From IMG/VR virus record IMGVR_UViG_3300037067_022543: a stretch of DNA of 64,000 bases; one strand, written 5' to 3'. The notes beneath the pieces are model-generated. The model saw nothing but the letters and a program-made list of their open reading frames with translations, was not told the DNA's origin and searched no databases. Both the position numbers and the translations under genes were made by a program. Below are positions 7,955-62,007 of this stretch, in pieces. Within the stretch, counting starts at the first letter, position 1, and each line of letters starts with the position of its first letter. Source of the DNA: a virus.

Positions 7955-8618
7955 TAAAAATCTCCTTTAAAAAAATACTTATGTGACTCCATCTCCTATG
8001 AGAAGAACAAAAAATCTTGTGACTATTTGAAAACTTATTTGCCCAAACAACTGTTTCCTTTTTGTCTATCACATTGGGAACACAATGATGAACTTCCATG
8101 CTTAGTCCCATGGAATTTCTTATTACATATTCTGAAGGAAAGTGACCAAAAATAACATATTCTCCACCTTCGGTATCAATTTTAATGAATAATCCTTTTA
8201 AATCAATATTGTATTTTTCAATAATACTACTCAACAAAAGAGAAGAACACCTTTCTTGCCCTGATACTTCCTTTGGAATATTAGAAAAAGAATGAGCTAA
8301 TGAACATTTTCCTGATATTTTTACAACTTCATCCCCATTTCCTAAAGCAATATTAAATGTTTCTATATCAAGGTTGGCTGTATTCTTTATTAAATTATTA
8401 TAATTTTCTTTATCTGGTTCTATGCTTATTATTCTAGCATTGGGATGAAAAAATCTAAAAGCAACAGAATACAAACCACAATTAGCTCCTATATCTAAAA
8501 TTGTTTTAATGCTATCCAAGGGGAATAGACCTATGCCATACATATACATATAAGGCAAAGAATAACTCCGCATTTCATTCAATAAAGCATCTTTACTGTG
8601 TTTTGGAATAATCATCAA
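7947..8618 (-). CDS. FkbM-family SAM-dependent methyltransferase
   Basis: DIGANCGLYSVAF motif. Confidence 0.7.
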   Translation of the reverse strand: MMIIPKHSKDALLNEMRSYSLPYMYMYGIGLFPLDSIKTILDIGANCGLYSVAFRFFHPNARIISIEPDKENYNNLIKNTANLDIETFNIALGNGDEVVKISGKCSLAHSFSNIPKEVSGQERCSSLLLSSIIEKYNIDLKGLFIKIDTEGGEYVIFGHFPSEYVIRNSMGLSMEVHHCVPNVIDKKETVVWANKFSNSHKIFCSSHRRWSHISIFLKEIFNE

Positions 8619-8724
8619 GATCCTTTTTCAATTAATATAGTATAATTATTCAACAAGGAAAATATTATGACCTTGAAAAAGGATTTTTTTTGTAAAAAAA
8701 GAATAATAAAAAAGGAGATAAAAC

Positions 8725-9045
8725 ATGAAAATTACCATGTCTAAACGTCAGTGGGAAGAATTAATTAATAGAGAAGAAACTTTAAACAAAAAAGATCAAT
8801 CAAAAGAAACAACTTGGAACAAAAAAGCTCAATCAGAAAATGCAAAAGATGTAATTTGTGATTCTGGTATAAAAGGATGGCAAGATAAATTACAAAATGT
8901 TTATCAATCTTTAGAAGAACTTATTTCTTATGATAATATATATGGAATTTGCAAAAGATTAGGATATGAAGATCCTAAAAAATGTTGGGAAGAAAACCCC
9001 ACTATACAGGGGTCTATTAATCCATCTGATTTAAAAAGGGTTTGA
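8725..9045 (+). CDS. hypothetical protein with conserved N-terminal leader (MKITMSKRQWEEL)
   Basis: SD AAGGAGATAAAAC before the ATG; first of three tandem plus-strand paralogs sharing the N-terminus. Confidence 0.6.
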   Translation: MKITMSKRQWEELINREETLNKKDQSKETTWNKKAQSENAKDVICDSGIKGWQDKLQNVYQSLEELISYDNIYGICKRLGYEDPKKCWEENPTIQGSINPSDLKRV

Positions 9046-9054
9046 AAGGAAAAC

Positions 9055-9381
9055 ATGAAAATTACATTATCTAAACAGCAATGGGAGTTCATCGGAAATA
9101 AAACAGGTTGGATTAAATCTGATAAAAAACCAATAAAAGATATAAATCAAAAAGCCCAACTAATCAAAAAAACCTATTTTTATCACATTAATTTAAATGA
9201 ACGTGGACAATTTTATGCCGATGTAAGAGATGAAAAAGGTAATACCATTTTTGAAATTAAGGGTTTTGAAATATTTGAAGACGGTTTCATGACAAATGTT
9301 AAAGACATGAACGGTTTGAAAAATTATTTAGTAAACCTAAGCTTAATTAGCAAACAAGACGAGTTGAAATATATAGGCTAA
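9055..9381 (+). CDS. hypothetical protein with conserved N-terminal leader (MKITLSKQQWEFIGNKTGWIK)
   Basis: SD AAGGAAAAC; the N-terminal 20 aa are shared with 9383, 61768 and 63338 family members. Confidence 0.6.
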   Translation: MKITLSKQQWEFIGNKTGWIKSDKKPIKDINQKAQLIKKTYFYHINLNERGQFYADVRDEKGNTIFEIKGFEIFEDGFMTNVKDMNGLKNYLVNLSLISKQDELKYIG

Positions 9382-9382
9382 C

Positions 9383-9727
9383 ATGAAAATTACATTATCT
9401 AAACAACAGTGGGAAATACTTGGTAATAAAAAACATATCACATCTCAAAATCTTGAAACAGTCAAAACTCTACCAAAACTTGATGACAGAGAAACAACTA
9501 GAGCAATAAGAGATGCTATTATTGCAGAAGAAGGAGCTATTAAGCAATATGAAGTTGTAGCAGATTCTACAAATAACAAAAAAATTTCTAAAGTTCTTCA
9601 AGATATAGCAGATGAAGAAAGAGTGCACGTTTTTGAATTACAAGAATTATTAAATTTTCTTTTGTCAGATGAAAAAAAGTTTGAACAAGATGGCAAAAAA
9701 GAAATTGCTGACTTAATGAAAAAATAA
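9383..9727 (+). CDS. leader-family protein with ferritin-like / rubrerythrin-like (EncFtn-like) C-terminal domain
   Basis: MKITLSKQQWEILGNK leader; AIIAEEGAIKQYE...ADEERVHVFEL resembles a diiron ExxH motif pair. Confidence 0.55.
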   Translation: MKITLSKQQWEILGNKKHITSQNLETVKTLPKLDDRETTRAIRDAIIAEEGAIKQYEVVADSTNNKKISKVLQDIADEERVHVFELQELLNFLLSDEKKFEQDGKKEIADLMKK

Positions 9728-9819
9728 AAATGGCGTATTGTAATATTCCTGTTGTCTTGCCATTAAGGCCGTACAGAAAATAAAACCTTACGCCATTTAA
9801 TATTTTAAAAACTTTCTAA

Positions 9820-10146
9820 TTAAAAAGGAAGATTGTCAGGGTCTTTATCTTCTATAGAAGGCAAATCTTCTTTTTTAGGTTCTGTTCCAGCAGAAACATT
9901 AGTGTTAGTCTTTGATGAATTTGATGAATTTGATGAAAGGGTTCCTACTGACTTTTCGCTTGGGATACTTAGATTAAGCCAACCGTTCCATTCTGAACCT
10001 ACAGGAAGACCGTTAATCTTAGCACTCAACTGCCCCTTTTCATTTTCAAAAACAGCACCACAAGTAAACCATCTGGCTTTCTTCTCACCATTAGATTCAT
10101 ACTCTCCAACTTTTGCAACTAAGTCATATTTTCTTTTTGAACTCAT
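9820..10146 (-). CDS. hypothetical protein with SSB-like acidic C-terminal tip (DKDPDNLPF)
   Basis: The C-terminus ends in D/E-rich ...LPF like bacterial SSB tails (DDDIPF); the N-terminal part is too short to be a canonical OB fold. Confidence 0.4.
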   Translation of the reverse strand: MSSKRKYDLVAKVGEYESNGEKKARWFTCGAVFENEKGQLSAKINGLPVGSEWNGWLNLSIPSEKSVGTLSSNSSNSSKTNTNVSAGTEPKKEDLPSIEDKDPDNLPF

Positions 10147-11721: not shown

Positions 11722-11832
11722 TTTATTATTTCCTTTAATAATTTATTCATCTAAAGAATACAAACATTTAACATCTAAATCACCAACATTGCTGAAAATA
11801 TCTTTGTGTAGTAAAAATTAACATAATATCAT

Positions 11833-12210
11833 TCACCACCATAATTCTTGAAAATATTTAGAGAACAATTGCATTCCTTCATTATAACTCTTCCATTTGG
11901 CCTTGCAATCATCTCTACTAACTGCTTCATCCTGTTTTAGGTGCCATTCAAATGCAAAAATAATTTTATCCAAAATAATTTGCCATTCTCCTTGTTTTTG
12001 AAATTTGCATGGATAACACGGAGATATGTCTCTAAATCTTTTTAATCTAGGAAGGACAAATGCTGCAATAGTAGTGTTCAAGTTCCATGTTTCTGAATTA
12101 CAAAACCCCATTTCTTTCAATTGTTTTTTATACTTTTTATATCTTTCATCATGCTTATCTAAAAACATAGGGCATTTCATTGACCATTGCCATTTTTTAT
12201 CTGATTTCAT
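11833..12210 (-). CDS. hypothetical protein (125 aa)
   Basis: Minus-strand ORF in a co-directional array. Confidence 0.45.
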   Translation of the reverse strand: MKSDKKWQWSMKCPMFLDKHDERYKKYKKQLKEMGFCNSETWNLNTTIAAFVLPRLKRFRDISPCYPCKFQKQGEWQIILDKIIFAFEWHLKQDEAVSRDDCKAKWKSYNEGMQLFSKYFQELWW

Positions 12211-12221
12211 AAATACTCCAT

Positions 12222-12650
12222 TTATTCTTCAGAAACATTTAAACAAACAATATTTCCAGAAGATATACTATTATCTATTATTTCTCTAATTTCTTCATTA
12301 TGACGAGAAATTCTAATAGCAGCCAATTCCCAATCTTTTTTAAATTTATAATTGTCAACACTTTTTATCATTTCAATTGTTTCTTTATATTCTTTATCAA
12401 AATAATTGTCAATAAATTTCTTAACATCATCTATTCCCATAGCTTCTACGCGATTGCTGTCTGAATAGACTTCTGCTGTTTTAATCAGTTTTATAATGTT
12501 TGGATCTTTTCTGCCGCAATGGATACAAGGTTGAGAATTCTTAAAAGCAATAATAAAAGATGTTGAACTACTGTTAGAAACAAAGTTTTCTCTAATTTTC
12601 ATTTTTATCCTTTTGTTTTTTTTCTTCATTATTAAAGACATAAATTTCAA
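12222..12650 (-). CDS. hypothetical protein (142 aa)
   Basis: Minus-strand ORF. Confidence 0.45.
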   Translation of the reverse strand: MKFMSLIMKKKNKRIKMKIRENFVSNSSSTSFIIAFKNSQPCIHCGRKDPNIIKLIKTAEVYSDSNRVEAMGIDDVKKFIDNYFDKEYKETIEMIKSVDNYKFKKDWELAAIRISRHNEEIREIIDNSISSGNIVCLNVSEE

Positions 12651-12807
12651 AAAACTCGTTCAGTGCTTTAAAATCTCCATTTTTAGTTCTATCCCTTAAT
12701 TCTTTTAAATTATCCACAAATTCATTAATGGAAAACTCATAATATTGCTTTTCTTCTTTTTTGCAAATTAATGCATTTTTTAAACAATTTTCTATATTAC
12801 TTCTCAT
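12592..12807 (-). CDS. hypothetical small protein (71 aa)
   Basis: ORF overlapping the 3' end of its neighbour; weak call. Confidence 0.3.
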   Translation of the reverse strand: MRSNIENCLKNALICKKEEKQYYEFSINEFVDNLKELRDRTKNGDFKALNEFFEIYVFNNEEKKQKDKNEN

Positions 12808-13162
12808 TCCATTTCCCCGTTTCTTTAATTGCCCTAATAACTCTGTAGACTAGTTCTCCTTGATGTCCACCACGCTCTAACATTTCTTTTTCTTTTTCCC
12901 ATATTTTGCCAACCATATCTTTGCATTCTAGACACGTTATTATCTCGTTATAATAGTTTAGATTATCATAATCTTCATTAGTAGCATAACATTTTTCTAA
13001 AAACAAATATCTATGTTCCTTGCAAACATCCTTTTTACAAACATAGCAAGTTTCTATGGTAGCAAAACCACCAGCACGTCTATAATTTTTATCTGAAGAA
13101 CAATTACAAAAATCGCATTTGCATTCCTCAATTTTGACTTCAATTTTTTTATTGACCCTCAC
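12797..13162 (-). CDS. Cys-rich (zinc-finger-like) hypothetical protein
   Basis: GTG start; multiple CxxC pairs (CKCDFCNC, CYVCKKDVC). Confidence 0.45.
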   Translation of the reverse strand: MRVNKKIEVKIEECKCDFCNCSSDKNYRRAGGFATIETCYVCKKDVCKEHRYLFLEKCYATNEDYDNLNYYNEIITCLECKDMVGKIWEKEKEMLERGGHQGELVYRVIRAIKETGKWNEK

Positions 13163-13299
13163 TATTTATCCTTTAAAAATTTCTTTACTTTTTTATACAA
13201 CCTGCTATAAATTATACAAATTTAAATTAATTGTCAATAAATAAAAGATTATTAATTAAAAGTAAAGTATAATACTGATAAACAACAGGAGTATATGTT

Positions 13300-13602
13300 A
13301 TGGATAAAAACAAACACAAAGCTCTTATTGATGAATTCGTTGAAACCTGTCCTTGTAAGGATGAATATTGCTCTTTAAGGGAACTTATAATGCATCTTTT
13401 CCAAGATCCAAGAACTCTTGTACAAGCAAAATGTTTGGAAAAGTTTAAATATGAGCGTTCAAAAGAACTTGGTAAAGATATAGGAAGTGCAGCAGTAGCA
13501 GAATGGATAGATCTAGGTTTTGCAAAGAAATTTTCTGATTGTTATAGTGAAGATAAAACTATTAATCAAATTTATAAAGAAATAAAAAATAGCAAGGTTT
13601 GA
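13300..13602 (+). CDS. hypothetical protein (100 aa)
   Basis: Plus-strand ORF with SD AGGAG 7 nt before the ATG and TATAAT at 13268-13273. Confidence 0.5.
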   Translation: MDKNKHKALIDEFVETCPCKDEYCSLRELIMHLFQDPRTLVQAKCLEKFKYERSKELGKDIGSAAVAEWIDLGFAKKFSDCYSEDKTINQIYKEIKNSKV

Positions 13603-13614
13603 AATTATTATATA

Positions 13615-14061
13615 TTAATCCTTATGTTTTCCATATAACTGTCTATAACACTTAAAATACTTTATGGCATCTTTAACCCCGTTTAATATAGTAGCATCAT
13701 ATAGACAACCCTGAATCCATCCTGGGACATCCTGTATAGTTATATCATCAAAATAACAAACAATGGGTTTATTGTAAATAGCAGCAAAAGTTATTTCGCT
13801 TAATGTTCCTGCTCCTTTAAGAACTGCAGAATCTATTTTTACAAGAAAATGCTCGCAACGAATCAAGTTGTTAATGTCTCTAATAACAATATTATTAATT
13901 ACTTTTTGTTTATACAAAAAAGAACATTTTTTAGGAACCTTTATCTTGTCTGGAATAATGACATCATAATATTGCAAAAGAGATTCCTTAACTTCATTCC
14001 TCCAATTGAAAGGATCTTTTGATTTTTCTATTGCTCCTGACAAATATATACTTGGTTTCAT
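13615..14061 (-). CDS. nucleoside 2-deoxyribosyltransferase-like protein
   Basis: IYLSGAIE at the N-terminus and DSAVLKGAGTLSEITFAAIYNKPIV, matching the NDT/Rcl-type Rossmann motifs. Confidence 0.55.
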   Translation of the reverse strand: MKPSIYLSGAIEKSKDPFNWRNEVKESLLQYYDVIIPDKIKVPKKCSFLYKQKVINNIVIRDINNLIRCEHFLVKIDSAVLKGAGTLSEITFAAIYNKPIVCYFDDITIQDVPGWIQGCLYDATILNGVKDAIKYFKCYRQLYGKHKD

Positions 14062-15233
14062 AATTTACTTTCAATTTTTCCGCCACTAGTAATCTCTATA
14101 AATTCACATTTTTCCTGAAATTCTTTTAAGTTTTTAGCCCCAACATAAGAAAATGATGATTGCAAGCCATGTTTAATATGTTTTAAAATATGTTTAACAT
14201 GCCCCCTAAAAGGAGCCATTTTTGCAACTCCTTCTACAAATTCATTTGCATTTCCATTTGAAACTTTATTTTCTCCGCTAGCAGAACCAGCATAAACTTT
14301 ATAAAACTCCCCTCTTTCTCCTGTAAAAACATTTCCTGGAGTTTCTGTTGATCCGGACAACATGGAACCGAGCATAACTGCATGAGAATATTTTAAGCTC
14401 TTTGCAATATCTCCTATTGATGACATGCCTCCATCTGCAATTATCTTTATGTGTTTAATGCCTTGTCTTATAAACTCTTCATTAATTGATTCCAAAGCAT
14501 AAAGTTGAGGAACACCAACCCCCGTATTTTTCCTCGTTAAGCAGGCCGAACCAGGACCGACGCCGCACTTAATACAATCTGCTCCCCATTCTGCAATATC
14601 GTAAGCACCTTCTGGAGTTGAAACATTACCTGCTATAATATATATATCTTTTAATCCTTTTTCTTTTATCCATTTTAATATATTTTTCATTACTAAAGAA
14701 TGGCCATGGGCAATATCTATGCAAAATATTTTTGCTCCAGCTTCGTATAAACTGTCAAACCTTTTTTTATCTTCATCTTGAACTCCTATTGAAACTCCAA
14801 TTTCATGGTCTTTATTACAAATACTTTTAATATTAGGATGTATATTAAAAGTACTACTATTAAAACTACTACAAGATTCTGAATATTTATCTTCATCTTT
14901 TAAAATAACAGTTGAGTTTCCTAAACTAATAGTATTACTTATAAGCCCTTCATTAACAGAAAAATGGTTTTTAACTTCTAAAAAATCTTCTACAGCTTGT
15001 TCAATACTGCAAAATCTATGTAAAATTCCCATACCGCCATTTTCAATCATTGCTATTGACATTTTAACGCCGCAAATAGTCTTCATATTTGCTGCTATAA
15101 TTGGCAAATTTATCTTAAAAAATCCAAAATCACTAGATAAATCAACACTTCTTCTAGACTCTATTTCAGAATATTTGGGGACAATTAGTACGTCACTAAA
15201 TGTATATGCTTCTTTATTTATTTTTTTATCCAT
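14058..15233 (-). CDS. IMP dehydrogenase / GMP reductase family protein (no CBS insert)
   Basis: CIDIAHGHS and the catalytic loop GVGPGSACLTR of the IMPDH/GMPR TIM barrel. Confidence 0.8.
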   Translation of the reverse strand: MDKKINKEAYTFSDVLIVPKYSEIESRRSVDLSSDFGFFKINLPIIAANMKTICGVKMSIAMIENGGMGILHRFCSIEQAVEDFLEVKNHFSVNEGLISNTISLGNSTVILKDEDKYSESCSSFNSSTFNIHPNIKSICNKDHEIGVSIGVQDEDKKRFDSLYEAGAKIFCIDIAHGHSLVMKNILKWIKEKGLKDIYIIAGNVSTPEGAYDIAEWGADCIKCGVGPGSACLTRKNTGVGVPQLYALESINEEFIRQGIKHIKIIADGGMSSIGDIAKSLKYSHAVMLGSMLSGSTETPGNVFTGERGEFYKVYAGSASGENKVSNGNANEFVEGVAKMAPFRGHVKHILKHIKHGLQSSFSYVGAKNLKEFQEKCEFIEITSGGKIESKL

Positions 15234-15248
15234 AATTGTGCTCCTTTA

Positions 15249-15620
15249 TTATCCACCCATTTCAATATAATCTCTAGTAAAATTACGATAGGCATACCCG
15301 TCCTCATCAAATTTAATTGGATATTTTTCGTTGAAAACGCGGTCTTCTGCATCGTGTCTGCTCGTTGCTACTCTTGCTCTTGCTAAATTAACTTCCATTT
15401 CTTCTATTATCTTCCAATAATCTTCCCATTGTTTTTCCGTCAATTCACTATTGGATTGCCGCATATTTAGTAAAATTTCTTCTGACGGAAATATTTGCAA
15501 TAACTCTGCACTTGTGCCTATAGAGTTGAAACCCATGAGGTCTTCACATATGCCTTTAAGTTTTCTATAATGACTAATTAAATGATTGAAATATTTGTTC
15601 TCAATGTCAGTAATTTTCAT
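15249..15620 (-). CDS. hypothetical protein (123 aa)
   Basis: Minus-strand ORF. Confidence 0.45.
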   Translation of the reverse strand: MKITDIENKYFNHLISHYRKLKGICEDLMGFNSIGTSAELLQIFPSEEILLNMRQSNSELTEKQWEDYWKIIEEMEVNLARARVATSRHDAEDRVFNEKYPIKFDEDGYAYRNFTRDYIEMGG

Positions 15621-18374: not shown

Positions 18375-18590
18375 TTAATATTTCTCCACATCTTCGCATT
18401 TTGGGAACTTTTTTGCATTATTATAATTTTTCTTGTAGCACAAACAAATATGCCCTTCTGATAAGTGAGCAGTACACGCCCATTCTTTATTTTCTTTGCA
18501 TTTTATTTGCCACTTACAGAATTTTTTCATTCCCAAACCTCGTCTATTAATTCGTAAATCAAGTCCTTCTGTTCGTCGGTAAATTTCCAC
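18375..18590 (-). CDS. small Cys-rich protein (71 aa)
   Basis: ORF overlapping 18527..19120; weak call. Confidence 0.3.
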   Translation of the reverse strand: MEIYRRTEGLDLRINRRGLGMKKFCKWQIKCKENKEWACTAHLSEGHICLCYKKNYNNAKKFPKCEDVEKY

Positions 18591-19120
18591 CTTATGTTAA
18601 CATTCTTGTCTGCCCAATCTTTAGGATTGCTTTTCTTCTCTTCAGACATTGCACACCAATCTGCCACCATCTCAGCTAAAGATAAATCTGGCATATTAGT
18701 AGCATCAATTAATTTTCTAGGCTCATCTCTATCTTCGCGGTTAATTAAACCAATTTTTTCTCCACAATAAAATTCCGGATGATGCTTATTCTTACAAACA
18801 TGATGATTTGTTGCAGCGTTCATTTTTTCTTTCATATCTTCTGAAATTTCAAATTTTTCCCCATCATCCTTACATTTGTATTGCCAAGTTATGTAGATAT
18901 AGGGTTCTTTTTCTGGGTCTTTAAATTTGCTATCATCATGAACCTTGCCCCTTTCAACTAATTCCCCAAATCTTTCCTTGTCATAATCTGAAATTTTTTG
19001 GCAATATTTTCTAACCAAATCAATATGCAAATTAGTTCTTTTTTTAAAAAAATCTAACATTTCTTTTTCTATTTTTGTGATCTCGTCTTTTGATAAAGTT
19101 GCCGTTTTATACCATGTCAT
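18527..19120 (-). CDS. HD-domain phosphohydrolase (YfbR-like 5'-deoxynucleotidase family)
   Basis: LHIDLVRKY ... RGKVHDDSKF (H...HD motif pair). Confidence 0.5.
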   Translation of the reverse strand: MTWYKTATLSKDEITKIEKEMLDFFKKRTNLHIDLVRKYCQKISDYDKERFGELVERGKVHDDSKFKDPEKEPYIYITWQYKCKDDGEKFEISEDMKEKMNAATNHHVCKNKHHPEFYCGEKIGLINREDRDEPRKLIDATNMPDLSLAEMVADWCAMSEEKKSNPKDWADKNVNIRWKFTDEQKDLIYELIDEVWE

Positions 19121-24895: not shown

Positions 24896-25864
24896 TCATG
24901 GTTTTATGCTCTGGGAACAAATAAGATCTTTATTATCCCAGAAATGTTTTAATGCTACCTGTGTCAATCTCTCAACAAATTGTGCAGGACTATCACCTTC
25001 TCCCTTTTCTACTATTTTATCAATAAACTCAGGACAATCTGACAATATCCTTTTAGCTATTTTTATCCTACAATCCTTATCTAATTTCTTTAATTCAAAT
25101 GCCCTATCTATTCTGCCTGGTCTAGTTGAAATATTTGTTCCGTTAGGATCTTTATCAGTTCTTGGCTTCCCTAACGCTTCATCTAATAATTCTACTCTAT
25201 TCGTAGTTACTATGAGAAATAATCCATCTGTATTTTGAACACCGTCTATGCAATTTAAAAAACAATCAAATGTTAATAAATCTAAATTATTATTTCTATT
25301 TCTAACATTTTCTCTGCCGTTAAAAACAGCATCAACATCTTCAATTAATGCTATACATGGAGTACTTCCTAACATATTTGACCATTCTTTGCAAAATTCA
25401 TAATTAGACATACCAGAAATATCAAAAAAATGAATTGGTAAATCAAGATGCTGACCTATTGCCTTAGCTAAAGAAGTCTTACCTGTATTATGAGAAACTA
25501 TATGATTTGAATAATAACTATGTGCGTTGCTTTTTACTTCAATGTCGTAAGTATCTTTAATGCCAATATATTCTTTTGCAATTACTTTATCTAAACCAGT
25601 TTCTGTTAAAACAGAGTCTTTCCCAACCACAATGTCTTCTGCCGATTTCCATTTTTTATTTTTGCTCATAACCAAATGATCATCGGAACATCCTAAAGAT
25701 AGTCCACCATTAGTTCTCAATATGTATGCATTTTTATTTTTTTTATTATAAACATCTCCTATTTCCATCCACCCATCGGGAGTTTCTATTTCGTATATTC
25801 CGTCTTCATCAACTATTTTAAAAAAATCTTCTATTGAAATTTCTTTTTCGTCTCCAATTTGCAT
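24896..25864 (-). CDS. C-terminal intein fragment (~129 aa) fused to the C-extein of a BCS1-like AAA+ ATPase
   Basis: Intein block B LGCSDDHLVMS and blocks F/G DTYDIEVKSNAHSYYSNHIVSHN, followed by +1 Thr and TGKTSLAKAIG (second half of Walker A); sensor LIVTTN; SD AGGA 6 nt before the ATG. Confidence 0.7.
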   Translation of the reverse strand: MQIGDEKEISIEDFFKIVDEDGIYEIETPDGWMEIGDVYNKKNKNAYILRTNGGLSLGCSDDHLVMSKNKKWKSAEDIVVGKDSVLTETGLDKVIAKEYIGIKDTYDIEVKSNAHSYYSNHIVSHNTGKTSLAKAIGQHLDLPIHFFDISGMSNYEFCKEWSNMLGSTPCIALIEDVDAVFNGRENVRNRNNNLDLLTFDCFLNCIDGVQNTDGLFLIVTTNRVELLDEALGKPRTDKDPNGTNISTRPGRIDRAFELKKLDKDCRIKIAKRILSDCPEFIDKIVEKGEGDSPAQFVERLTQVALKHFWDNKDLICSQSIKP

Positions 25865-25902
25865 ATTATATCCTAATCTCTATTTTTATACTTGTCTACA
25901 AG

Positions 25903-26784
25903 CTACTGGACTATTATTTTTTTGTGCTTGCCATCATTGGACTTTTTTCTTATTTTTATCTTTGTTTCAGCAAGAACACATCCAGGGCTTCCGAAAAGTA
26001 GCCACCCTCTTTTCCAAGGGATAGATTTTGACCTATACCACTTCTCGCTATCCTTCCATCTTTCCATTTCTCCTACTAATGCATCTATTTCTTTTGGAAA
26101 AGCTAATACTTGCAAACTTCTTTTTTCGTCTTGATCTTCTCCTATATCATCAACTTTATATTTTAATATTCTTTTATCTCCAAGAAAAACATCTACATTG
26201 CATGTTATTGTTGCCATTCCTCCATCAGATGGAGCATACTTAGCTGTTTTTTCATCACCATTGCAAGATCGTCCTATGTGTCTATAAATCGTAAATCTAG
26301 ATCTTTTATCATTTTTAATACTCCTTTGATTTAATAACTCTATAGCGTCTATCATTAATTGTTCAATATCAAATGTTCCTCTAATAAAAGAAATAGATGC
26401 AGAACGTTGTTCTCCAATTTCAGATGATGTAACGGGCCTGTTATCATCCTTATTATCAGACATTGAAATAATTAATGGTTTCCAACCCTTCCAAAAAATT
26501 GTTTTGTCTTTAAAATTGACTTCTTCATATCCAATTATATGATGCTTTTTTATACTTTTGATATAATCTCTAAATGTTGAAAAAGAAAGCGGTTGAAATG
26601 GTGATCTTCTAAAATTTTTGACTAAATATACTTCCATCGCTTTTGGCAAATTTCTATCAATTCTAATAGTGACAATAAATAAACTTGATACTCTAGAAAA
26701 TAAAAACTTAATTTTACTCCAAACCAAACCAATAGTGGTAAATATTGCAGCTCCACCAAATACTGTTTCTAAATTATTTAACAT
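25903..26784 (-). CDS. N-extein of BCS1-like AAA+ ATPase (TM anchor, ...KRGWLLFGSPG) fused to a 25-aa N-terminal intein fragment (CVLAETKIKIRKKSNDGKHKKIIVQ)
   Basis: The extein ends in the first half of Walker A (GSPG), directly followed by Cys1 and block-A-like CVLAET; stop after 25 intein residues. Confidence 0.7.
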   Translation of the reverse strand: MLNNLETVFGGAAIFTTIGLVWSKIKFLFSRVSSLFIVTIRIDRNLPKAMEVYLVKNFRRSPFQPLSFSTFRDYIKSIKKHHIIGYEEVNFKDKTIFWKGWKPLIISMSDNKDDNRPVTSSEIGEQRSASISFIRGTFDIEQLMIDAIELLNQRSIKNDKRSRFTIYRHIGRSCNGDEKTAKYAPSDGGMATITCNVDVFLGDKRILKYKVDDIGEDQDEKRSLQVLAFPKEIDALVGEMERWKDSEKWYRSKSIPWKRGWLLFGSPGCVLAETKIKIRKKSNDGKHKKIIVQ

Positions 26785-29668: not shown

Positions 29669-30514
29669 CTAATTATTTATAACAAAAATTTCTTCATTTT
29701 CATCAAATTTGCCATCATCCCACCAACGAACATCTGGAAAACACCAATTCAATTTCATTTCGTCATATATCATTTTGTTAGTTTCTGTGTTCTGAATATA
29801 TAACCTTATAGGCTTTATTTTCATAATGTCAACATATCTCGTCCTCAAATGTATAAAAGTATTCCAACTATGAACACTAATTCCAATGCCATCAATGTAG
29901 CCGTCAACCATCTTGACAAAGTTTTTAGTTAGAAATATTCCATTCGTTTGAAGATAAATTGGAGTATCCTTTGCAGCTTTCCGTCTCAAACAGCAAAGTA
30001 TAGCAACTAATTTAGGATAAAGCAAAGGCTCTCCACCAGAAACAATAATAGTTCTATATTTTTTTAAGTCAACTTCCTTCCCATCAAGATTAAAAATTTT
30101 TCCATTAAAATCTTGAAGTGGAATCCACTTTTTACTATATTCTTCCAACTTATTAATGCAATACTCGCACTTTAGATTGCAAGCCAAAGTAACCTTAATT
30201 CGGCATTTTGTTTTTTTAACAAAATTAAATTTGTTTTCTGTTTCCTTTTTCCGACCAGTATATAATTCCCAACAAATTGGACAACACTCATCTTTCGTAT
30301 GAAACTTACCTTGACTCCCGCTCAAATGATAATCCTTGCCAATTTTACCGCATAATGTTTTGCTATGTACTAACAAAATTGGTTCTATTGGTGAAATAGG
30401 AATATGCACCCATTTATCGTCAGAATAACAAAGTTCCATATATGGCATTATTTTTCTCCCATCAATCATAACATAAATCATAATTATTTTATGCACCAAT
30501 ATTGTATCCCACAT
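29669..30514 (-). CDS. radical SAM domain protein
   Basis: CNLKCEYC (CxxxCxxC) and SGGEPLL. Confidence 0.7.
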   Translation of the reverse strand: MWDTILVHKIIMIYVMIDGRKIMPYMELCYSDDKWVHIPISPIEPILLVHSKTLCGKIGKDYHLSGSQGKFHTKDECCPICWELYTGRKKETENKFNFVKKTKCRIKVTLACNLKCEYCINKLEEYSKKWIPLQDFNGKIFNLDGKEVDLKKYRTIIVSGGEPLLYPKLVAILCCLRRKAAKDTPIYLQTNGIFLTKNFVKMVDGYIDGIGISVHSWNTFIHLRTRYVDIMKIKPIRLYIQNTETNKMIYDEMKLNWCFPDVRWWDDGKFDENEEIFVINN

Positions 30515-31916: not shown

Positions 31917-32783
31917 TTATAACGAATTATTATGCCTTACCCTATAATAAGAAACATATTTCTTTAACTTTTCAATACTTCTTTTAGAAAGATTAGAACG
32001 ATCTATCCCATATTTTTCAACTAATGCTTCAATCAAATCATTTGCAATTTCTTCATTAGATTTATTCCAGTCTACCTTAGACCAATCATATTTTCTGTTT
32101 GGACTATACTGCAATGTTTCAGGAGCGTATAAAGTTCTATATCTAGAAACCAATGATCTACTAATATTATATTCTTCTGCAATTTCTCTATTAGACTTAC
32201 TCCAATCAACTTGCGGTCCTAAAACAGACCAATCATATTGAGTGGGAATTGAATGAACTGTATTTGGGGCAAAAGTCTTCCTATTTCTTGGAACTGAACC
32301 AATAGAAACACCATTTTCTATGGCAATTTCTTCATTAGGCTTATTCCAGTCCACCTTAGACCAATCTATATTTTTTGGTCCAGAATTAAGTTTTGTATCA
32401 GGGGCTAATTTTGATCTCATTCCAGATATATGATCATAGCTCAAACCAATTTCTTGTGCAATTTCTTCATTAGATTTATTCCAGTCCACCTTAGACCAAT
32501 CTGGTTTTACTATTGTATTTGGGGCTAGTTTTCTCCTCATAAAACTAACATATCCCATGGGGGCTCCTATTTCTTGAGATATTTCTTTGTTTGTTTTATT
32601 CCAATCAACCTTGGAAAAATTATATTTCGGTTGCATTGTTTCTGGAGCGTATCTCTTTCTCATTCTAGAGACATAAACAGAAGACGCCCCTGATTCTTTT
32701 GCAATTTCTGATGTTGATTTGTTCCAATCAACCTTGGAAAAATCATATTCAGAAGCTATTTTATACATTGTGTACCAGTTCAT
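31917..32783 (-). CDS. tandem HTH-like repeat protein (MNWYTMYK...; repeats DWSKVDWNKSNEEIAQEIG..S.....MR.K.AP.T)
   Basis: About seven ~35-aa repeats; paralog of 34102..35052. Confidence 0.55.
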   Translation of the reverse strand: MNWYTMYKIASEYDFSKVDWNKSTSEIAKESGASSVYVSRMRKRYAPETMQPKYNFSKVDWNKTNKEISQEIGAPMGYVSFMRRKLAPNTIVKPDWSKVDWNKSNEEIAQEIGLSYDHISGMRSKLAPDTKLNSGPKNIDWSKVDWNKPNEEIAIENGVSIGSVPRNRKTFAPNTVHSIPTQYDWSVLGPQVDWSKSNREIAEEYNISRSLVSRYRTLYAPETLQYSPNRKYDWSKVDWNKSNEEIANDLIEALVEKYGIDRSNLSKRSIEKLKKYVSYYRVRHNNSL

Positions 32784-34101: not shown

Positions 34102-35052
34102 TTAAAGTTGAAAATTATTGTCTAATTGAGAAGATTTATACCAGTTGAAAGAAGAAAACAATGATTTTAACGGTTCGGTCTCTTGTGGATTTGGTTTGTG
34201 AAGATAATGTCTAACTTTTCCAACATATGCTGTTAATTTTTCAAGATATCTTTCTGGAAGTTTAGACGGATCAAAATCTGGTTCTTTTTTTAACTCTTCA
34301 ATTAAAAATTCTGCTATTTGTCTATCTTTTTTATTCCAATCTACCAATTCCCATTTTAATTTTCTAGGTTGTTTTCGTAATGTCCATGGAGCATATTTTT
34401 TTCTATATCTAGAAATATATGCTGGATCAACATCTTTTTCTTCTGCAATATCTGTTGTTCTTCTAATCCCCCATGCAATTTGTGGACCTTCAGTTGTCCA
34501 GTCTGTTTCCTTCTCATAACGCTTAATAGTATCATTAGCCCAAAACGCCCTCATAGCGTGAACATAATGTATATTTCTATCGGTTTCTATTGAAATTTCC
34601 TTATCGGATTTTACTTTCCATTCCACTTTTGCCCAGTCAACTTTAGCTATTGTATCTGGAGCACATCTCCTCCTCATGCGAGAAACACTAGTGGGATGAA
34701 GTCCTGTTTCTTGAACAATTTGCTTTGTTGATTTGTTCCAATCAATATCGGAACATTTTAAATATTCTTTTATTGTATCTAAAGCAAAACGTCTTCTCAT
34801 TTTTCCAACTTGGTTTTCTCCCTTCCCAATTTCTTGAGATATAACTTTGTTAGACTTGCTCCAGTCTATTTTTGACCAATCAAAATACTTAGTTTTTGTT
34901 TCAGGAGCACATATTACTCTTAAATGATAAATATAACTCATACTTAGTCCAGTTTCTTGCGAAATTTCAGCAGTGGATTTGCTCCAATCTATATCTGAAC
35001 AATCATATTTTGGTTTGCTGTATGTAGTTTTATATAATGTATACCAATTCAT
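34102..35052 (-). CDS. tandem HTH-like repeat protein (MNWYTLYK..., paralog of 31917..32783)
   Basis: Same repeat unit (IDWSKSNKVISQEIG...). Confidence 0.55.
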   Translation of the reverse strand: MNWYTLYKTTYSKPKYDCSDIDWSKSTAEISQETGLSMSYIYHLRVICAPETKTKYFDWSKIDWSKSNKVISQEIGKGENQVGKMRRRFALDTIKEYLKCSDIDWNKSTKQIVQETGLHPTSVSRMRRRCAPDTIAKVDWAKVEWKVKSDKEISIETDRNIHYVHAMRAFWANDTIKRYEKETDWTTEGPQIAWGIRRTTDIAEEKDVDPAYISRYRKKYAPWTLRKQPRKLKWELVDWNKKDRQIAEFLIEELKKEPDFDPSKLPERYLEKLTAYVGKVRHYLHKPNPQETEPLKSLFSSFNWYKSSQLDNNFQL

Positions 35053-35094: not shown

Positions 35095-35171
35095 TGGTGA
35101 TCTCGGAGGAATTCGAATCCCCAATTTCTTCCACGTCAAGGAAGCACATTAACCAATTATGTTACGAGACC
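35095..35171 (-). tRNA. tRNA-Val (anticodon GAC), CCA encoded
   Basis: Manual fold: acceptor GGTCTCG/CGAGATC, anticodon arm CTTCC-TTGACGT-GGAAG, T-arm GGGGATTCGAATTCCTC. Confidence 0.65.
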
Positions 35172-36214
35172 AAACTGGTGCTCCTGGCAGGAATTAAACC
35201 CACTTCTACGGGATGAGAACCAGTCGTTTTATTCGGTAAACTATAGGAGCCAAAATTCTTAATCCTATCTAAAAAACTGTCCAATTTGTTTTCTGGATAT
35301 AAATCTGACGGTATTATTTCTATAAATTTTAAATTGTTGTCTTTTACTATTTTGCGTTTGAGTTCTACTACTTTATCATATTCTTCCACCTGCCCTATTA
35401 AACCGAAATATTCTACCAATATATTATAATATGGTAAATAAAAATCACAATCCATATTGCTATTGGGATATTTTTTATTTCTTTCGTGATTTATTTTATT
35501 TATAAAAAACCAATCGTCTACTATTTTTTCAGATATGCTGTCTGCCATATGATTGTCTTGACATTTCAATCTAGTTTTTTGAAATTTACTTTTGTTTGGT
35601 TTTAATCCGCAAAAACTAACGGCTTTATTCCATGTTCCAAAAAATCTTATGGTAGCAGACAATAATCTTATTAAACAATCTCTTTTTTGAGGAGTTCTAT
35701 TAATTTTTTGAGATAATTGTATTATTTTATTAATTACTTCGTCTTTGGTATATGGAGAAAATCCAAACTGATATATTTTTCCGCATTTTGCAGAACAACA
35801 CTTGATTCTTTTTCTCGATGGATGGAATTTTTTTCCACAAATAACGCAGTTCATTTCTTCAAGCATTATTTTATTTTGTGTTTTAAGATATTTTCTAATT
35901 GAATTTCTAGTTTTTTCTGATATTTCTTTTCTTTTTTCATCACTAAAAATTCTATTTTTATTATTTACTACTGCTGCACAAGAATTGCAACAATAAAATT
36001 TCTTTGTTTTACTTCTTTTATAATCACAATTTCCAACCACAATATCTTTTCCACAGTTATAACATTTTAGATTTTTAGATTTTGTTTTAAATTGTATTCT
36101 GCATTCTTTGCTACAAAAAAACTTCCATTTTTGTTTATTCGACCAATTATAATTCCTAGCTGGCATACCAAAATGATGGTGGCAGAAAGAACACTCGACA
36201 TCAATATCTACCAT
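35162..36214 (-). CDS. N-terminal zinc-ribbon repeats + C-terminal DUF559/Vsr-like endonuclease-fold protein
   Basis: Multiple CxxC pairs; DCDFYLPYYNILVEYFG matches the DUF559 core. The ORF as called reads through tRNA-like 35176..35251, so the true 3' end is uncertain. Confidence 0.5.
   Translation of the reverse strand: MVDIDVECSFCHHHFGMPARNYNWSNKQKWKFFCSKECRIQFKTKSKNLKCYNCGKDIVVGNCDYKRSKTKKFYCCNSCAAVVNNKNRIFSDEKRKEISEKTRNSIRKYLKTQNKIMLEEMNCVICGKKFHPSRKRIKCCSAKCGKIYQFGFSPYTKDEVINKIIQLSQKINRTPQKRDCLIRLLSATIRFFGTWNKAVSFCGLKPNKSKFQKTRLKCQDNHMADSISEKIVDDWFFINKINHERNKKYPNSNMDCDFYLPYYNILVEYFGLIGQVEEYDKVVELKRKIVKDNNLKFIEIIPSDLYPENKLDSFLDRIKNFGSYSLPNKTTGSHPVEVGLIPARSTSLVS
35176..35251 (-). tRNA. 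tRNA-like element (possible Glu, anticodon CTC) with acceptor and anticodon-stem mismatches and a non-canonical T-loop
   Basis: Manual fold GCTCCTA...CAGGAGC A CCA; T-loop TTTAATT lacks C56. Confidence 0.3.
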
Positions 36215-36312
36215 AAGAATAACTCCTTTTATATAATTATTCTTTAATATGTCGGCAATCTCCTACTTGAACCTTCAATTATTTGTATTATTTTTTAGGA
36301 CGGTTCAAAAAA

Positions 36313-36390
36313 TGGTGTCGCCATCGGGACTCGAACCCGAACTTTTCAGGATGAAAACCTGATGTGTTAGCCAGTTACACCATGGCGACA
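36313..36390 (-). tRNA. tRNA-Glu (anticodon TTC), CCA encoded
   Basis: Acceptor TGTCGCC/GGCGACA, anticodon arm TCAGG-TTTTCAT-CCTGA, T-arm GGGTTCGAGTCCC. Confidence 0.7.
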
Positions 36391-36395
36391 TAAGT

Positions 36396-36487
36396 TGGTC
36401 AGAGGGGTGGGATTTGAACCCACGATTACCTTGCGGTTTTCCTCCTGCGCCCAAGGCAGGCGTTCTACCAAGCTGAACTACCCTCTG
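36396..36487 (-). tRNA. tRNA-Pro-like (anticodon TGG, G37) with a 20-nt variable region containing a GNRA-capped hairpin (ACC-GCAA-GGT)
   Basis: Perfect acceptor CAGAGGG/CCCTCTG, Pro-type D-loop AGCTTGGTA, anticodon arm CCTGC-CTTGGGC-GCAGG, T-arm GTGGGTTCAAATCCCAC; variable region AGGAAAACCGCAAGGTAATC. Confidence 0.55.
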
Positions 36488-36495
36488 TACAAAAT

Positions 36496-36572
36496 TGGCA
36501 CTCCTGACAGGACTTGAACCTGCACAATCCCACGTTCGTAGCGTAGTGCCCTTCCAATTAGGCCACAGGAGC
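36496..36572 (-). tRNA. tRNA-Arg (anticodon ACG), CCA encoded
   Basis: Acceptor GCTCCTG/CAGGAGT, anticodon loop CTACGAA, T-arm GCAGGTTCAAGTCCTGT. Confidence 0.7.
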
Positions 36573-36606
36573 ATTATACATTAAATTTTCAAATATCAAT
36601 AAAAAA

Positions 36607-36686
36607 TGGTGGGCATGGTGGGATTTGAACCCACGACCTTCTGTGTATCAGACAGACGCTGCTAAAACCAGCTGAGCTACATGCCC
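36607..36686 (-). tRNA. tRNA-Ile (anticodon GAT), CCA encoded
   Basis: Acceptor GGGCATG/CATGCCC, anticodon arm TCTGT-CTGATAC-ACAGA, T-arm GTGGGTTCAAATCCCAC. Confidence 0.7.
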
Positions 36687-36729
36687 ATAATTATGCATTA
36701 TTAAGTTTTCAAATAACAAAACTAAAAAT

Positions 36730-36804
36730 GGTCCGGACCATCCAGAATCGAACTGGAGCCTTCAAGTTCACAGCATGACGGGCTACCACTACCCCATAGT
36801 CGGC
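36730..36804 (-). tRNA. tRNA-His-like (anticodon GTG) with genomically encoded G-1; one C.C mismatch in the acceptor stem
   Basis: Anticodon arm TCATG-CTGTGAA-CTTGA, T-arm TCCAGTTCGATTCTGGA, G immediately 5' of acceptor CCGACTA; the 3' side is TGGTCCG-G-ACCA. Confidence 0.45.
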
Positions 36805-36813
36805 ATCAAAAAG

Positions 36814-36900
36814 TCGGGAAGGTCGGATTTGAACCGACAATGCATTATTTCAGCTCCTGCTTCCAAAGCAGGTCGAGTACCAGTTATCTTCTACTTCCCG
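36814..36900 (-). tRNA. degenerate tRNA-like element (anticodon TGG, A37; irregular D-arm; 17-nt variable region), no CCA
   Basis: Acceptor CGGGAAG/CTTCCCG and T-arm GTCGGTTCAAATCCGAC are intact; the anticodon stem CCTGC/GCAGG is identical to that of tRNA-Pro-like 36396..36487. Confidence 0.35.
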
Positions 36901-60622: not shown

Positions 60623-60700
60623 TGGTAGGTGCGGAGGGATTTGAACCCCCAACCCCCGAGATATAAGCTCGGTGCTCTAACCAGTTGAAGCTACGCACCC
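60623..60700 (-). tRNA. tRNA-Ile (anticodon TAT, AUA-reading), CCA encoded
   Basis: Acceptor GGGTGCG/CGCACCT, anticodon arm CCGAG-CTTATAT-CTCGG, T-arm GGGGGTTCAAATCCCTC. Confidence 0.6.
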
Positions 60701-60712
60701 ATATTTCTCAAA

Positions 60713-60787
60713 TGGCTGCCCGACCAGGATTTGAACCTAGACTAACACGTTCAGAGCGTGTCATGCTGCCAATTACACTATCGGGCA
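60713..60787 (-). tRNA. tRNA-Gln (anticodon CTG), CCA encoded
   Basis: U1:A72 acceptor TGCCCGA/TCGGGCA, anticodon arm ACACG-CTCTGAA-CGTGT. Confidence 0.65.
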
Positions 60788-60793
60788 ATAAAG

Positions 60794-60865
60794 TTGTCCC
60801 GCCTGGAATTGAACCAGGTCTAGAACGTTCAAAGCGTCCTGTGCAGACCTTTACACCACGGGACA
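60794..60865 (-). tRNA. tRNA-Gln (anticodon TTG), no CCA
   Basis: Acceptor TGTCCCG/CGGGACA, anticodon arm GGACG-CTTTGAA-CGTTC, T-arm CCTGGTTCAATTCCAGG. Confidence 0.65.
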
Positions 60866-60870
60866 ATAAA

Positions 60871-61239
60871 TCATATTTTAACATTTAACTCTTCAATATC
60901 AAAATTATGCCTAAACGATTGTTTTTTTAATTTTTCTTCTTCATCTTTTAGTTTTTTAACTTTTTCTTCTGCAAATTCTTTTCTCATAAAATAGCCATGT
61001 TCCATATAATCAATCCATCTTCCTCTACTATCTTCACAGTTTTCTTTAACCCTATATATCTTGAAAGATCCACCTTGAATAAAATGATCTACTAATTCAT
61101 TTATTGAAGCACAGTTGAGACAACCTTCATTATGGCCGTTATAGCTAGTATTTAAGGTCTCCCTCAATACATCTCTTATTGTAACTGGCTTATCTATTAT
61201 AATACCTATTTCTTTTTTACTCTCAACTATTGTTTCCAT
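60871..61239 (-). CDS. hypothetical protein (122 aa)
   Basis: Minus-strand ORF directly downstream of tRNA-Asp. Confidence 0.45.
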   Translation of the reverse strand: METIVESKKEIGIIIDKPVTIRDVLRETLNTSYNGHNEGCLNCASINELVDHFIQGGSFKIYRVKENCEDSRGRWIDYMEHGYFMRKEFAEEKVKKLKDEEEKLKKQSFRHNFDIEELNVKI

Positions 61240-61274
61240 ATTATTTCTCCTTTTTAATTATTATTTTATAAAGT

Positions 61275-61348
61275 TGGCGGGGCCGATGGGAGTTGAACCC
61301 ACGCAGGAAAATAGACAGTTTCCCATTCTACCGTTAAATCACGGCCCC
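61275..61348 (-). tRNA. tRNA-Asp (anticodon GTC), CCA encoded
   Basis: Acceptor GGGGCCG/CGGCCCC, anticodon arm GGAAA-CTGTCTA-TTTCC. Confidence 0.7.
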
Positions 61349-61421
61349 ATTTTTCAAAGAGCATTTGCAATTTTAGTTTAAATAGTCTCAACCACGTAAA
61401 GGTATTGCATATATGAGACCG

Positions 61422-61504
61422 CTCCATCGGTAGGACTTAAACCTACAAACCCTTACGGGCGTCTGGTTAACAGCCAGATGCGGTTATCATTTCGCCACGA
61501 TGGA
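61422..61504 (-). tRNA. atypical tRNA-Asn-like (anticodon GTT) with a 15-nt variable region forming a CCC-GTAA-GGG (GNRA) hairpin; G18G19 and C56 not conserved
   Basis: Acceptor TCCATCG/CGATGGA, anticodon arm TCTGG-CTGTTAA-CCAGA, T-arm GTAGGTTTAAGTCCTAC. Confidence 0.45.
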
Positions 61505-61767: not shown

Positions 61768-62007
61768 TTAATCTTTTTTAGTATCTTTTCTCCAATCTGT
61801 TGTTCCTTTTACTTTATCAACAATTGATGCACAATAAGCCCCAGGATTACCCTTATCTTTATTTTTATCAATACACTCATCAATAAATCCGTGCTCCTTT
61901 GGGCTATGTTTGTATTTTTTCTTTTTCTTTGCTTCCTCTATTTTTAACCATCCTGTTTTTTCACCAATGAATTCCCATTGACTTTTAGATAATTTAATTG
62001 TTGCCAT
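61768..62007 (-). CDS. leader-family small protein (MATIKLSKSQWEFIGEKTGWLK...)
   Basis: N-terminus matches the MKITLSKQQWEFIGNKTGW family. Confidence 0.55.
   Translation of the reverse strand: MATIKLSKSQWEFIGEKTGWLKIEEAKKKKKYKHSPKEHGFIDECIDKNKDKGNPGAYCASIVDKVKGTTDWRKDTKKD

Follow-up and report, generated by a model that had tools for sequence, protein, structure and literature searches.

Bacteriophage T4 packages diverse internal proteins whose only conserved part is an N-terminal propeptide of 10–19 residues, the capsid-targeting sequence (CTS). This propeptide alone is enough to bring a foreign protein into the prohead core, and the prohead protease removes it (PMC9026906, PMC3012670). For the ejection proteins of giant phages, processing at N-terminal propeptides by the prohead protease is described (PMC7411985, PMC10052503, PMC12810830). 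We analysed an N-terminal leader of up to 24 residues that opens five genes in a 64,000-nucleotide stretch of viral DNA (IMG/VR record IMGVR_UViG_3300037067_022543; the window hereafter), and that an initial annotation had likened to capsid-targeting or encapsulin targeting peptides. The head-internal anti-restriction (Dar) proteins of phage P1 and the ejection proteins of SPN3US and phiKZ are further cases of a head that takes up a wide range of non-structural proteins; to our knowledge no single long conserved leader is common to all the cargo of these systems. The cleavage motifs of giant phages are short (A/S/G-x-E) and their proteases are T4 gp21-like. In encapsulin systems a short terminal peptide, usually C-terminal and of a consensus different from that of the leader, sends diverse cargo into an HK97-fold shell, as is proposed here for the leader.

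A six-frame search for SKxQWE with ≤1 substitution found exactly five sites in the 64 kb, each of which opens an open reading frame (ORF). About 5% of window genes have the leader, the consensus of which in the window is MKI(T/K)LSKxQWExIGxKxGWxKxAQ. The five genes are as follows.

8725..9045, plus strand: leader gene 1 (gene 8725), 106 amino acids; shortened leader MKITMSKRQWEEL at about 8725–8763; leader hidden Markov model (HMM) E = 7.8e-5.
9055..9381, plus strand: leader gene 2 (gene 9055), 108 amino acids; full leader MKITLSKQQWEFIGNKTGWIKS (9055–9126); leader HMM E = 3.5e-16.
9383..9727, plus strand: leader gene 3 (gene 9383), 114 amino acids; short hybrid leader MKITLSKQQWEILGNKKHITSQ, then a predicted EncFtn/EncB-like half-ferritin.
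61768..62007, minus strand: leader gene 4 (gene 62007), 79 amino acids; start MATIKLSKSQWE; leader HMM E = 3.3e-13.
63338->64000, minus strand: leader gene 5 (gene 63338), running past the window end; two cargo modules.

The leader HMM, trained on metagenomic members, matched the five genes with E = 3.5e-16, 3.3e-13, 3.5e-10, 2.4e-7 and 7.8e-5. A near-identical leader of about 20 residues had been described on all five. This holds for genes 9055, 62007 and 63338, which contain the full 24 residues, but genes 8725 and 9383 keep the first 13–15 residues only (first residues MKITMSKRQWEEL.. and MKITLSKQQWEILGNKK.., respectively). The cargo regions that follow are mutually unrelated, in agreement with the same annotation. 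When the DNA of the five starts was aligned, synonymous differences were seen (CAG/CAA, GAA/GAG, TTC/TTT and ATC/ATT), and nothing upstream was conserved except the ribosome-binding site. The synonymous differences and the unconserved upstream DNA therefore indicate that selection acts on the peptide and not on the DNA. A promoter and terminator scan of 8500–9950 was uninformative.

The leader and four of the five cargoes matched no Pfam, PHROG or NCBIfam family. The gene 8725 cargo reads ..VICDSGIKGWQDKLQNVY..GYEDPKKCWEENPTIQGSINPSDLKRV. In gene 9055 the leader is followed by a disordered linker and a beta-beta-beta-alpha-beta cargo (YFYHINLNERGQFYADVR..FEIKGFEIFEDGFM..); the AlphaFold2 model has a leader helix at residues 7–17 with a low predicted local distance difference test score (pLDDT), residues 22–35 score below 50, and the cargo scores 86–90. 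Foldseek found no significant match to this cargo fold in the PDB. The gene 62007 leader variant, MATIKLSKSQWEFIGEKTGWLK (62007 down to about 61942), is followed by a poly-Lys linker and a conserved 40-residue domain with two helices and two Cys (SPKEHGFIDECI..PGAYCASIVDKVKGTTDWRK), the most frequent cargo type in the leader profile search described below. Its model (mean pLDDT 61) contains a leader helix at 8–18, disorder at 24–30 and the two cargo helices. Both proteins were modelled with family alignments, and in both a lone leader helix (7–18, at modest confidence) precedes a disordered linker and an independent cargo, against which the helix is not packed. The gene 62007 cargo motif HGFIDECI..PGAYCASIVDK gave weak, non-significant tblastn matches (E = 0.2–4) in haloarchaeal tailed viruses, all of them in head-assembly proteins (annotated portal, head morphogenesis and gpO-like scaffold). 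Gene 63338 is complete on the overlapping contig L001, where it encodes 225 amino acids and starts MKITLSKQQWEFIGNKTGWIK, with a leader given as MKITLSKQQWEFIGNKTGWIKYA; full-length copies occur on L001, L002 and L003. Its second module ends in a hydrophobic helix, AAIILVILGIFIG, near the C-terminus.

A search with the gene 9055 product returned full-length relatives as well as proteins with the leader alone in common, and a leader profile search added 173 proteins, all of ≤84 residues; the HMMER scan shows that the true length range is wider. That scan, of 1.84 billion cluster representatives, gave 1,236 (50%-identity clusters) at E ≤ 1e-3, a few of which are repeat-driven false positives (e.g. 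P0151 and P0155). The match lies at residues 1–26, from Met1, in nearly all of the 1,236. The logo reads M K I K/T L S K s Q W E x I G k K A/T G W i/m K x A q, with information content near maximal at positions 1–21 and falling away past 24; W, G and Q are invariant, E11 is conserved at 80%, and near-invariant residues go on for 13 positions after it, to K21-x-A23-Q24. In the logo, which is hydrophilic (S, K, Q, E, G, K, K), neither a hydrophobic run nor an RR motif nor Cys occurs; lacking an h-region, twin-Arg and lipobox, the leader does not fit a Sec/Tat or lipoprotein signal. A likeness to the N-terminal helix of encapsulin shell proteins was considered and dropped after the leader profile matched no PDB chain at E ≤ 10.

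The leader is near-confined to viral and metagenomic contigs, where it is conserved over 30–41% GC. JGI metagenomes contained 244 confirmed relatives and IMG/VR seven loci. In GTDB, with one genome per species, true members were found only on three short contigs of metagenome-assembled genomes (MAGs), L039, L043 and L044; a cellular origin had been considered for GTDB pattern matches, including four in Cloacimonadota MAGs, and was rejected when the HMM confirmed those three contigs only. Against 50,697 phage records, tblastn with the consensus leader found nothing and the 79-residue gene 62007 product gave insignificant cargo matches only, and megablast with 25 kb of the window gave no match. 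The leader strings were not found in the literature searched, in which a concept search gave only work on T4, SPN3US and phiKZ.

The 104 loci that were fetched contain 205 leader ORFs, 169 of them unique and 16–382 amino acids long, with a maximum of eight leader genes in one locus, on a 6.5-kb contig. The cargoes include zinc ribbons, lysine-rich mini-proteins, acidic domains, AAA ATPases, a half-ferritin and many domains without a family. Cargo modules are shuffled between these proteins. Behind one full leader, P0005 joins the gene 8725 cargo with that of 9055, and L070 joins it with that of 9383; in other proteins the 9055 cargo is preceded by a zinc ribbon (P0002, P0004 and P0006) or by the N-terminal module of 63338 (L060); and the N- and C-terminal modules of 63338 are found separately behind the leader elsewhere (L060, P0019, L111 and P0169). 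A module that has turned into a separate polypeptide gains its own leader. The shuffling, together with the 1,236 representatives, bears out the earlier view of a tag on unrelated cargo, as against one globular domain that is homologous from end to end. A fused gene such as that in L070 appears to have been split to give the three tandem window genes: the gene 9383 junction falls inside the leader, ..ILG|NKKHITSQNLE, compared with ..ANKNGKKQVVSQNLE in the fused L070 gene (ANKNGKKQVV). In a minority of proteins, leader copies are internal or in tandem, with Met-Lys replaced by other residues, and such proteins could be polyproteins.

The 9055 cargo also occurs without the leader, in P0010 and P0011. 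P0011 (NCBI) has 79 residues and stands for a cluster of 77 sequences, the longest contig being 135 kb and apparently of a different kind; the motif of this cargo domain is INLNERGxFxADVR..FEIKGFxIFEDG. A gene for a 98-residue protein, HPr-like by eye, lies beside a P0013-like type of leader gene on L057 (474–767) and in eight other loci.

The cargo of gene 9383 is, from its matches and predicted ligands, an EncFtn/EncB-like half-ferritin and a predicted ferroxidase, which upholds the ferritin- or rubrerythrin-like assignment of the initial annotation. In Pfam it matched Rubrerythrin at 1.4e-6 (29.1 bits, above the cut-off) and EncFtn-like at 4e-3 (17.3 bits, cut-off 27). Its NCBIfam matches fell below the family cut-offs, at 1.3e-17 and 63.8 bits for EncB_fam (cut-off 90) and 3.9e-14 and 52.6 bits for TIGR04535 (cut-off 125). 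The best PDB matches were Pyrococcus furiosus EncFtn (5n5e, 1.3e-6), Myxococcus xanthus EncC/EncB and the P. furiosus EncFtn-encapsulin fusion 2e0z (ids 5n5e, 7s8t, 2e0z and 7s5k), all of them encapsulin-associated ferritin-like proteins. The di-iron ligands are kept: aiiaEe..qY and adEErvH align to the E, Y and EExxH of 5n5e, 7s8t and 2e0z. One leader cargo thus comes from a family whose characterised members sit inside HK97-fold shells, and here it bears an N-terminal leader. It ends in an acidic tail (..KFEQDGKKEIADLMKK), as do its homologues, and in these tails, read against the encapsulin consensus, we did not recognise an encapsulin-type targeting peptide.

At least 197 homologues of gene 9383 were found, at 60–70% identity. 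Among the 120 homologue N-termini listed, 26 have the long leader, 52 start MHIDSGNMILFxKxAQ, 26 have a short form, M-[KR]-I-x-x-[KR]-x-A-Q, and 16 are of other types; all end in AQ or SQ immediately before the core. MHIDSGNMIL.. was considered as a second leader of many cargoes and does not appear to be one: a pattern scan of IMG/VR gave only chance matches, and its neighbours on a 508-kb contig lack it. On L125 a long-leader gene (10001–10096) lies directly upstream of an EncFtn-like gene (10359) starting MYIDSGNMIL.., and therefore both N-terminal types coexist in one phage. The short form looks like the long leader minus its middle (MKI-[..LSKSQWEFIGKKTGW..]-IKTAQ) and resembles a motif of phage G described below; short-form starts are also present on unrelated ORFs of leader-bearing loci and on P339, a protein of the head module.

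In related phages, leader genes stand inside the head module. On one 52-kb IMG/VR contig (L009/L055) the gene order is AAA ATPase, P339, a leader gene, P475, portal, two leader genes, U623, a 1,882-residue protease-scaffold, a 181-residue protein and a 288-residue major capsid protein (MCP; Pfam Phage_capsid, PF05065). The general order is AAA ATPase, P339, one to three leader genes, P475, portal, none to two leader genes, U623, protease-scaffold, decoration protein, MCP and a leader gene. The L009/L055 portal matched phrog_16240 (1.8e-39) and has an intein. The 1,882-residue protein has a head maturation protease at its N-terminus (phrog_18299), with NHD and GVSMG motifs that we take to be HK97-like active-site motifs, and the remainder is long, repetitive and scaffold-like. 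The L009 portal gene (11811–15269, plus strand) has, besides the LAGLIDADG domain of its intein, an endonuclease-like domain (DUF559/MTES_1575) at the C-terminus.

Between P339 and P475, five of the six distinct P339 lineages have one to three leader genes, and leader genes also follow the portal or the MCP in related lineages. Slots beside the portal, protease-scaffold and MCP were seen in at least six distinct lineages, and the proteins in them are non-orthologous between phages, so that these are variable positions in a conserved module. Other leader genes adjoin genes for replication and repair (RecJ, ligase and endonuclease). Further members, and the prohead protease proposed as a check in the initial annotation, were found in related contigs; the protease-scaffold stands by leader genes in related loci and not in the window. 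P339 and P475 had no relatives in Pfam, PHROG or the PDB, nor had U623 and the large AAA+ ATPase upstream; all four are candidate partners of the leader. The set of four was noted in L009/L014, L063, L076, L108/L113, L126 and L044.

Phage G is the sole cultivated megaphage (PMC12484599). The 288-residue MCP matched phage G gp27 (PDB 6wkk) with E = 3.9e-96 and 55% identity, and in leader-bearing loci (L008, L009/L055 and L012) the MCP is 55–56% identical to gp27, the portal 34–35% identical to phage G gp14 and the protease 44% identical to gp19. On this MCP, portal and protease homology, the leader family is assigned to uncultivated relatives of phage G (Donellivirus). The leader HMM did not detect the long leader in phage G itself. 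A shorter type of start, MKRLIKKA, was found in phage G (NC_023719) on 11 of 56 ORFs in the first 40 kb (L135, 1–40000) and on 6 of 29 around 250 kb (L136, 236000–262000), that is on 17 of the 85 sampled (~20%). It stands in the same slots, on gp12 and gp13 before the portal and on gp17 and gp20 between portal and MCP. Phage G gp346 starts MKRLFKKAL, followed by an acidic linker and a ferritin-like region; it is annotated as ferritin-like and is reported in purified phage G particles, as is gp349 (PMC12484599). The motif is absent from gp349. The NUDIX hydrolase gp334 also has an MKRLIKKA-type start. No description of the motif was found in the literature searched.

The MKRLIKKA motif thus compares with the leader in its lineage by MCP, portal and protease, in its portal slots and in its presence on a virion-reported ferritin-like protein, and it resembles the two ends of the leader joined together (MKI..IKTAQ); it differs in having only about eight residues, in escaping the leader HMM and in its presence on a fifth of the sampled ORFs. 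A unification of the long leader, the short form and the phage G motif is offered as a lead, not a result. We put forward, tentatively and as rather improbable in its full extent, that the short M-K-I-x-K-x-A-Q, the long leader and MKRLIKKA could be variants of a general sorting code in phage-G-like megaphages, with a hydrophobic-K-x-A-Q core, which would load dozens of proteins per genome, including the ferroxidase, into the capsid, the virion doubling as an encapsulin-like nanocompartment. In the uncultured phage LR745208 (485 kb, L137) another common N-terminus, MTTLRSKLIRLAH..PLLKEA, is present on two ORFs that flank the MCP, which suggests that lineage-specific N-terminal leaders may be general in phage-G-like megaphages. 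The two ORFs start at 18704 and 26331 of LR745208.1 and have the 29-residue N-terminus MTTLRSKLIRLAHxxPxLRPxLLPLLKEA.

We favour, with moderate confidence and by analogy with the CTS of T4 internal proteins, the reading that the leader is a capsid-targeting tag in phage-G-like megaphages. The leader, MKI(K/T)LSKxQWExIGKK(A/T)GW(I/M)KxAQ, would be a transferable sorting peptide that a short disordered linker joins to many unrelated small cargoes. It would bind a conserved prohead component, which might be the portal, the inside of the capsid wall or the scaffold portion of the protease-scaffold, and this binding would enclose the cargo in the capsid; the prohead protease may then cut the leader off near its K-x-A-Q end. 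On this view the cargoes reside in the head or are ejected from it, among them the predicted ferroxidase 9383, lysine-rich small proteins, zinc ribbons and the membrane-helix protein. We infer that the five window genes would behave like the copies in the head modules. Cleavage after ..QWE, as initially proposed, is unlikely because the invariant part continues for 13 residues beyond an E11 of only 80% conservation, and the protease is phage G gp19-like, not T4 gp21-like. If the leader is cut, the K-x-A-Q boundary would be a better candidate than QWE.

The T4 CTS (of IPI, IPII, IPIII, Alt and gp67/gp68-type proteins) is, like the leader, a short N-terminal peptide on unrelated, fast-evolving small proteins, and the genes for T4 internal proteins and the leader genes are both diverse between related phages. 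A further likeness to T4 is that leader genes with non-orthologous cargo hold head-module slots, including the stretch between portal and protease; T4 genes 67 and 68 are located between genes 20 and 21. The differences are also considerable. The leader is longer, at 24 residues, and far more conserved; it has no sequence similarity to the T4 CTS, MKTYQEFIAE; its end lacks an L/I-x-E cleavage motif; and it has no PHROG match. The leader family exceeds that of T4 in size by two orders of magnitude or more, and internal copies occur. Where T4 has gp21 and gp22, the leader phages have a capsid of phage-G/HK97 type and a scaffold of ~1,850 residues to which a gp19-like protease is fused. Packaging and cleavage are described for T4 in the work cited above and are presumed for the leader proteins.

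Several observations weigh against a capsid-targeting function. The likeness to capsid targeting that was first proposed gains indirect support from the slots by portal, protease-scaffold and MCP in related phages, but the five window genes lie outside any head module, surrounded by genes for sugar modification, tRNAs and homing endonucleases; the window's phage would be tied to the phage-G-like head module solely through its membership of the leader family. After dereplication, loci with head genes make up 12 of 77 groups, or 7 of the 23 groups of ≥8 kb. Enrichment near head genes is modest, ~30% compared with a chance expectation of ~10% that is a rough estimate, not computed, for a ~25-kb head module in a genome of several hundred kb, and the synteny is partly inherited. 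The short motif may stand on too large a share of the sampled phage G ORFs, a fifth, for every such protein to be packaged. Internal and tandem copies mean that the leader is not strictly an N-terminal signal. AAA ATPase cargoes (P0146 and L077) are unexpected passengers, the median cargo isoelectric point is ~6, not uniformly basic as in T4, and the leader is conserved far more strongly than would be required of a plain amphipathic helix for targeting.

If it does address proteins to the capsid, the leader would surpass in size and conservation every other protein-packaging signal of a phage known to us, and it would mark more than 1,000 cargo families, from sequence alone, as candidates for packaged and possibly injected proteins, some of which, by analogy with T4 internal proteins, could be anti-defence or host-takeover factors. 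A homologue of encapsulated ferritins would then lie inside a virus capsid, which matters for the evolutionary link that has been proposed between encapsulins and the capsids of phages, and the leader would offer a natural, programmable tag of 24 residues for loading HK97-type shells. The wider sorting code, if true, would be a living phage-side counterpart of encapsulin cargo loading. Should the leader not be a packaging signal, an undescribed recognition system in huge phages would still be indicated.

The leader could instead be recognised by a chaperone, an unfoldase or a protease (AAA+, ClpXP-like or Hsp70) and so control folding, timing or degradation, with no packaging; we think this unlikely. 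It would agree with the large AAA+ ATPase gene conserved two genes upstream of the leader slot, with the Hsp70, Hsp20 and AAA ATPase encoded in the window, with the description of phage G as having ClpXP, and with the tagged fraction of phage G ORFs, which is more in keeping with a tag for general quality control than with one for packaging. The Met-basic-hydrophobic start of the leader also resembles N-terminal ClpX recognition motifs. However, a degron needs no 24 near-invariant residues with two Trp and two Gly, and neither the fixed hypervariable slots by portal and protease genes nor the leader on an encapsulated-ferritin-type protein is accounted for.

Equally doubtful is a role as an intracellular localisation or assembly module, either as a membrane- or DNA-binding amphipathic helix rich in Trp and Lys or as a peptide for oligomerisation at a structure other than the capsid. 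W10, I13, A17 and M/I20 lie on one face of the predicted helix 7–18, with lysines flanking, the internal and tandem copies suit a reusable binding motif, and many leader genes stand amid those for replication and repair. Yet the leader lacks the hydrophobic core typical of membrane anchors and matched nothing in the PDB (E ≤ 10), Pfam or NCBIfam, and such a module would leave the head-module slots and the EncFtn-like cargo without explanation.

A destination in a separate phage nanocompartment, encapsulin-like or vault-like and distinct from the virion, is very improbable. The EncFtn/EncB-like cargo of gene 9383, with its homology and conserved di-iron ligands, is what speaks for it. Pfam scans of the window (non-overlapping ORFs of ≥80 residues, E ≤ 1e-3) gave no match to capsid, portal, terminase, encapsulin/Linocin, Vault/major vault protein (MVP) or Band_7 families, so neither the MVP-like shell protein previously reported in the window nor an encapsulin shell gene was recovered. 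The HK97-fold neighbour of leader genes in related loci is the true MCP of the virion, in a module with portal and prohead protease. The leader is moreover unlike the targeting peptides of encapsulins, and by their consensus gene 9383 has none at its C-terminus.

It is just as improbable that the 5′ coding region is conserved for a role at the nucleic-acid level, such as a translation enhancer or a patch of homology for recombination, the peptide having no role. The three tandem genes do resemble a cassette insertion, with one fused gene in L070 and a junction inside the 9383 leader, and A/T-rich Lys codons after ATG would favour translation initiation. Against this, synonymous sites vary while amino acids are kept, the leader is kept on contigs with a GC content of 30–41%, W, G and Q are invariant, and internal in-frame copies without ATG retain the peptide. 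Least credible of all are precursors of ribosomally synthesised and post-translationally modified peptides, with the leader read by a modifying enzyme (e.g. a radical SAM protein, encoded in the window at 29669–30514) and the variable parts as core peptides: a conserved leader before a hypervariable, often Cys-rich C-terminus would suit them, but the cargoes are folded and reach ~380 residues (382), including the half-ferritin, AAA ATPases and the confidently modelled beta-beta-beta-alpha-beta domain, neighbour clustering shows no consistently adjacent modifying enzyme, and the genes are dispersed, some within head modules.

The window itself has 30% G+C and is a piece of a very large uncultivated phage. 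Its genes include Hsp70, UvrD helicase, IMP dehydrogenase, 5′-3′ exonuclease and a helicase and methylase pair; sugar epimerases, FkbM methyltransferase, a BNR sialidase-like protein, Thg1, the radical SAM protein and an AAA ATPase; and FliW, several DNA methyltransferases and Hsp20. Ribosomal and other core cellular genes are absent, and many small ORFs have no family. There are 13 tRNA genes in two clusters (35095–36900 and 60623–62926), among them a tRNA-Ile(TAT) and two predicted tRNA-Pro(TGG) genes of unusual length, at 92 and 88 nt.

The AAA ATPase gene at 24896–26784 (minus strand) is broken into two ORFs at Walker A (..LLFGSPG|CVLAETKI..stop and ..SNHIVSHN|TGKTSLAKAIG). The AAA domain was confirmed by Pfam, and the break, judged by eye, looks like an intein or split intein in the P-loop. 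Two paralogous proteins (31917–32783 and 34102–35052, both minus strand) start MNWYT.YK and contain five to six HTH_23-like repeats of ~40 residues with the consensus DWSKVDWNKSNEEIAxExG..S..YVSxMRRKxAP; one copy of this type of repeat is the cargo of leader proteins P0081 and P0112. A DUF5662 protein of the window (18527–19120, minus strand) starts MTWYKTATLSK, and a similar-looking protein on L010 (5620–6216, minus strand) starts MKIIKIAEKE. Both starts resemble the W/I-hydrophobic-K-x-A core at the end of the leader, which hints at a wider set of short-tagged proteins.

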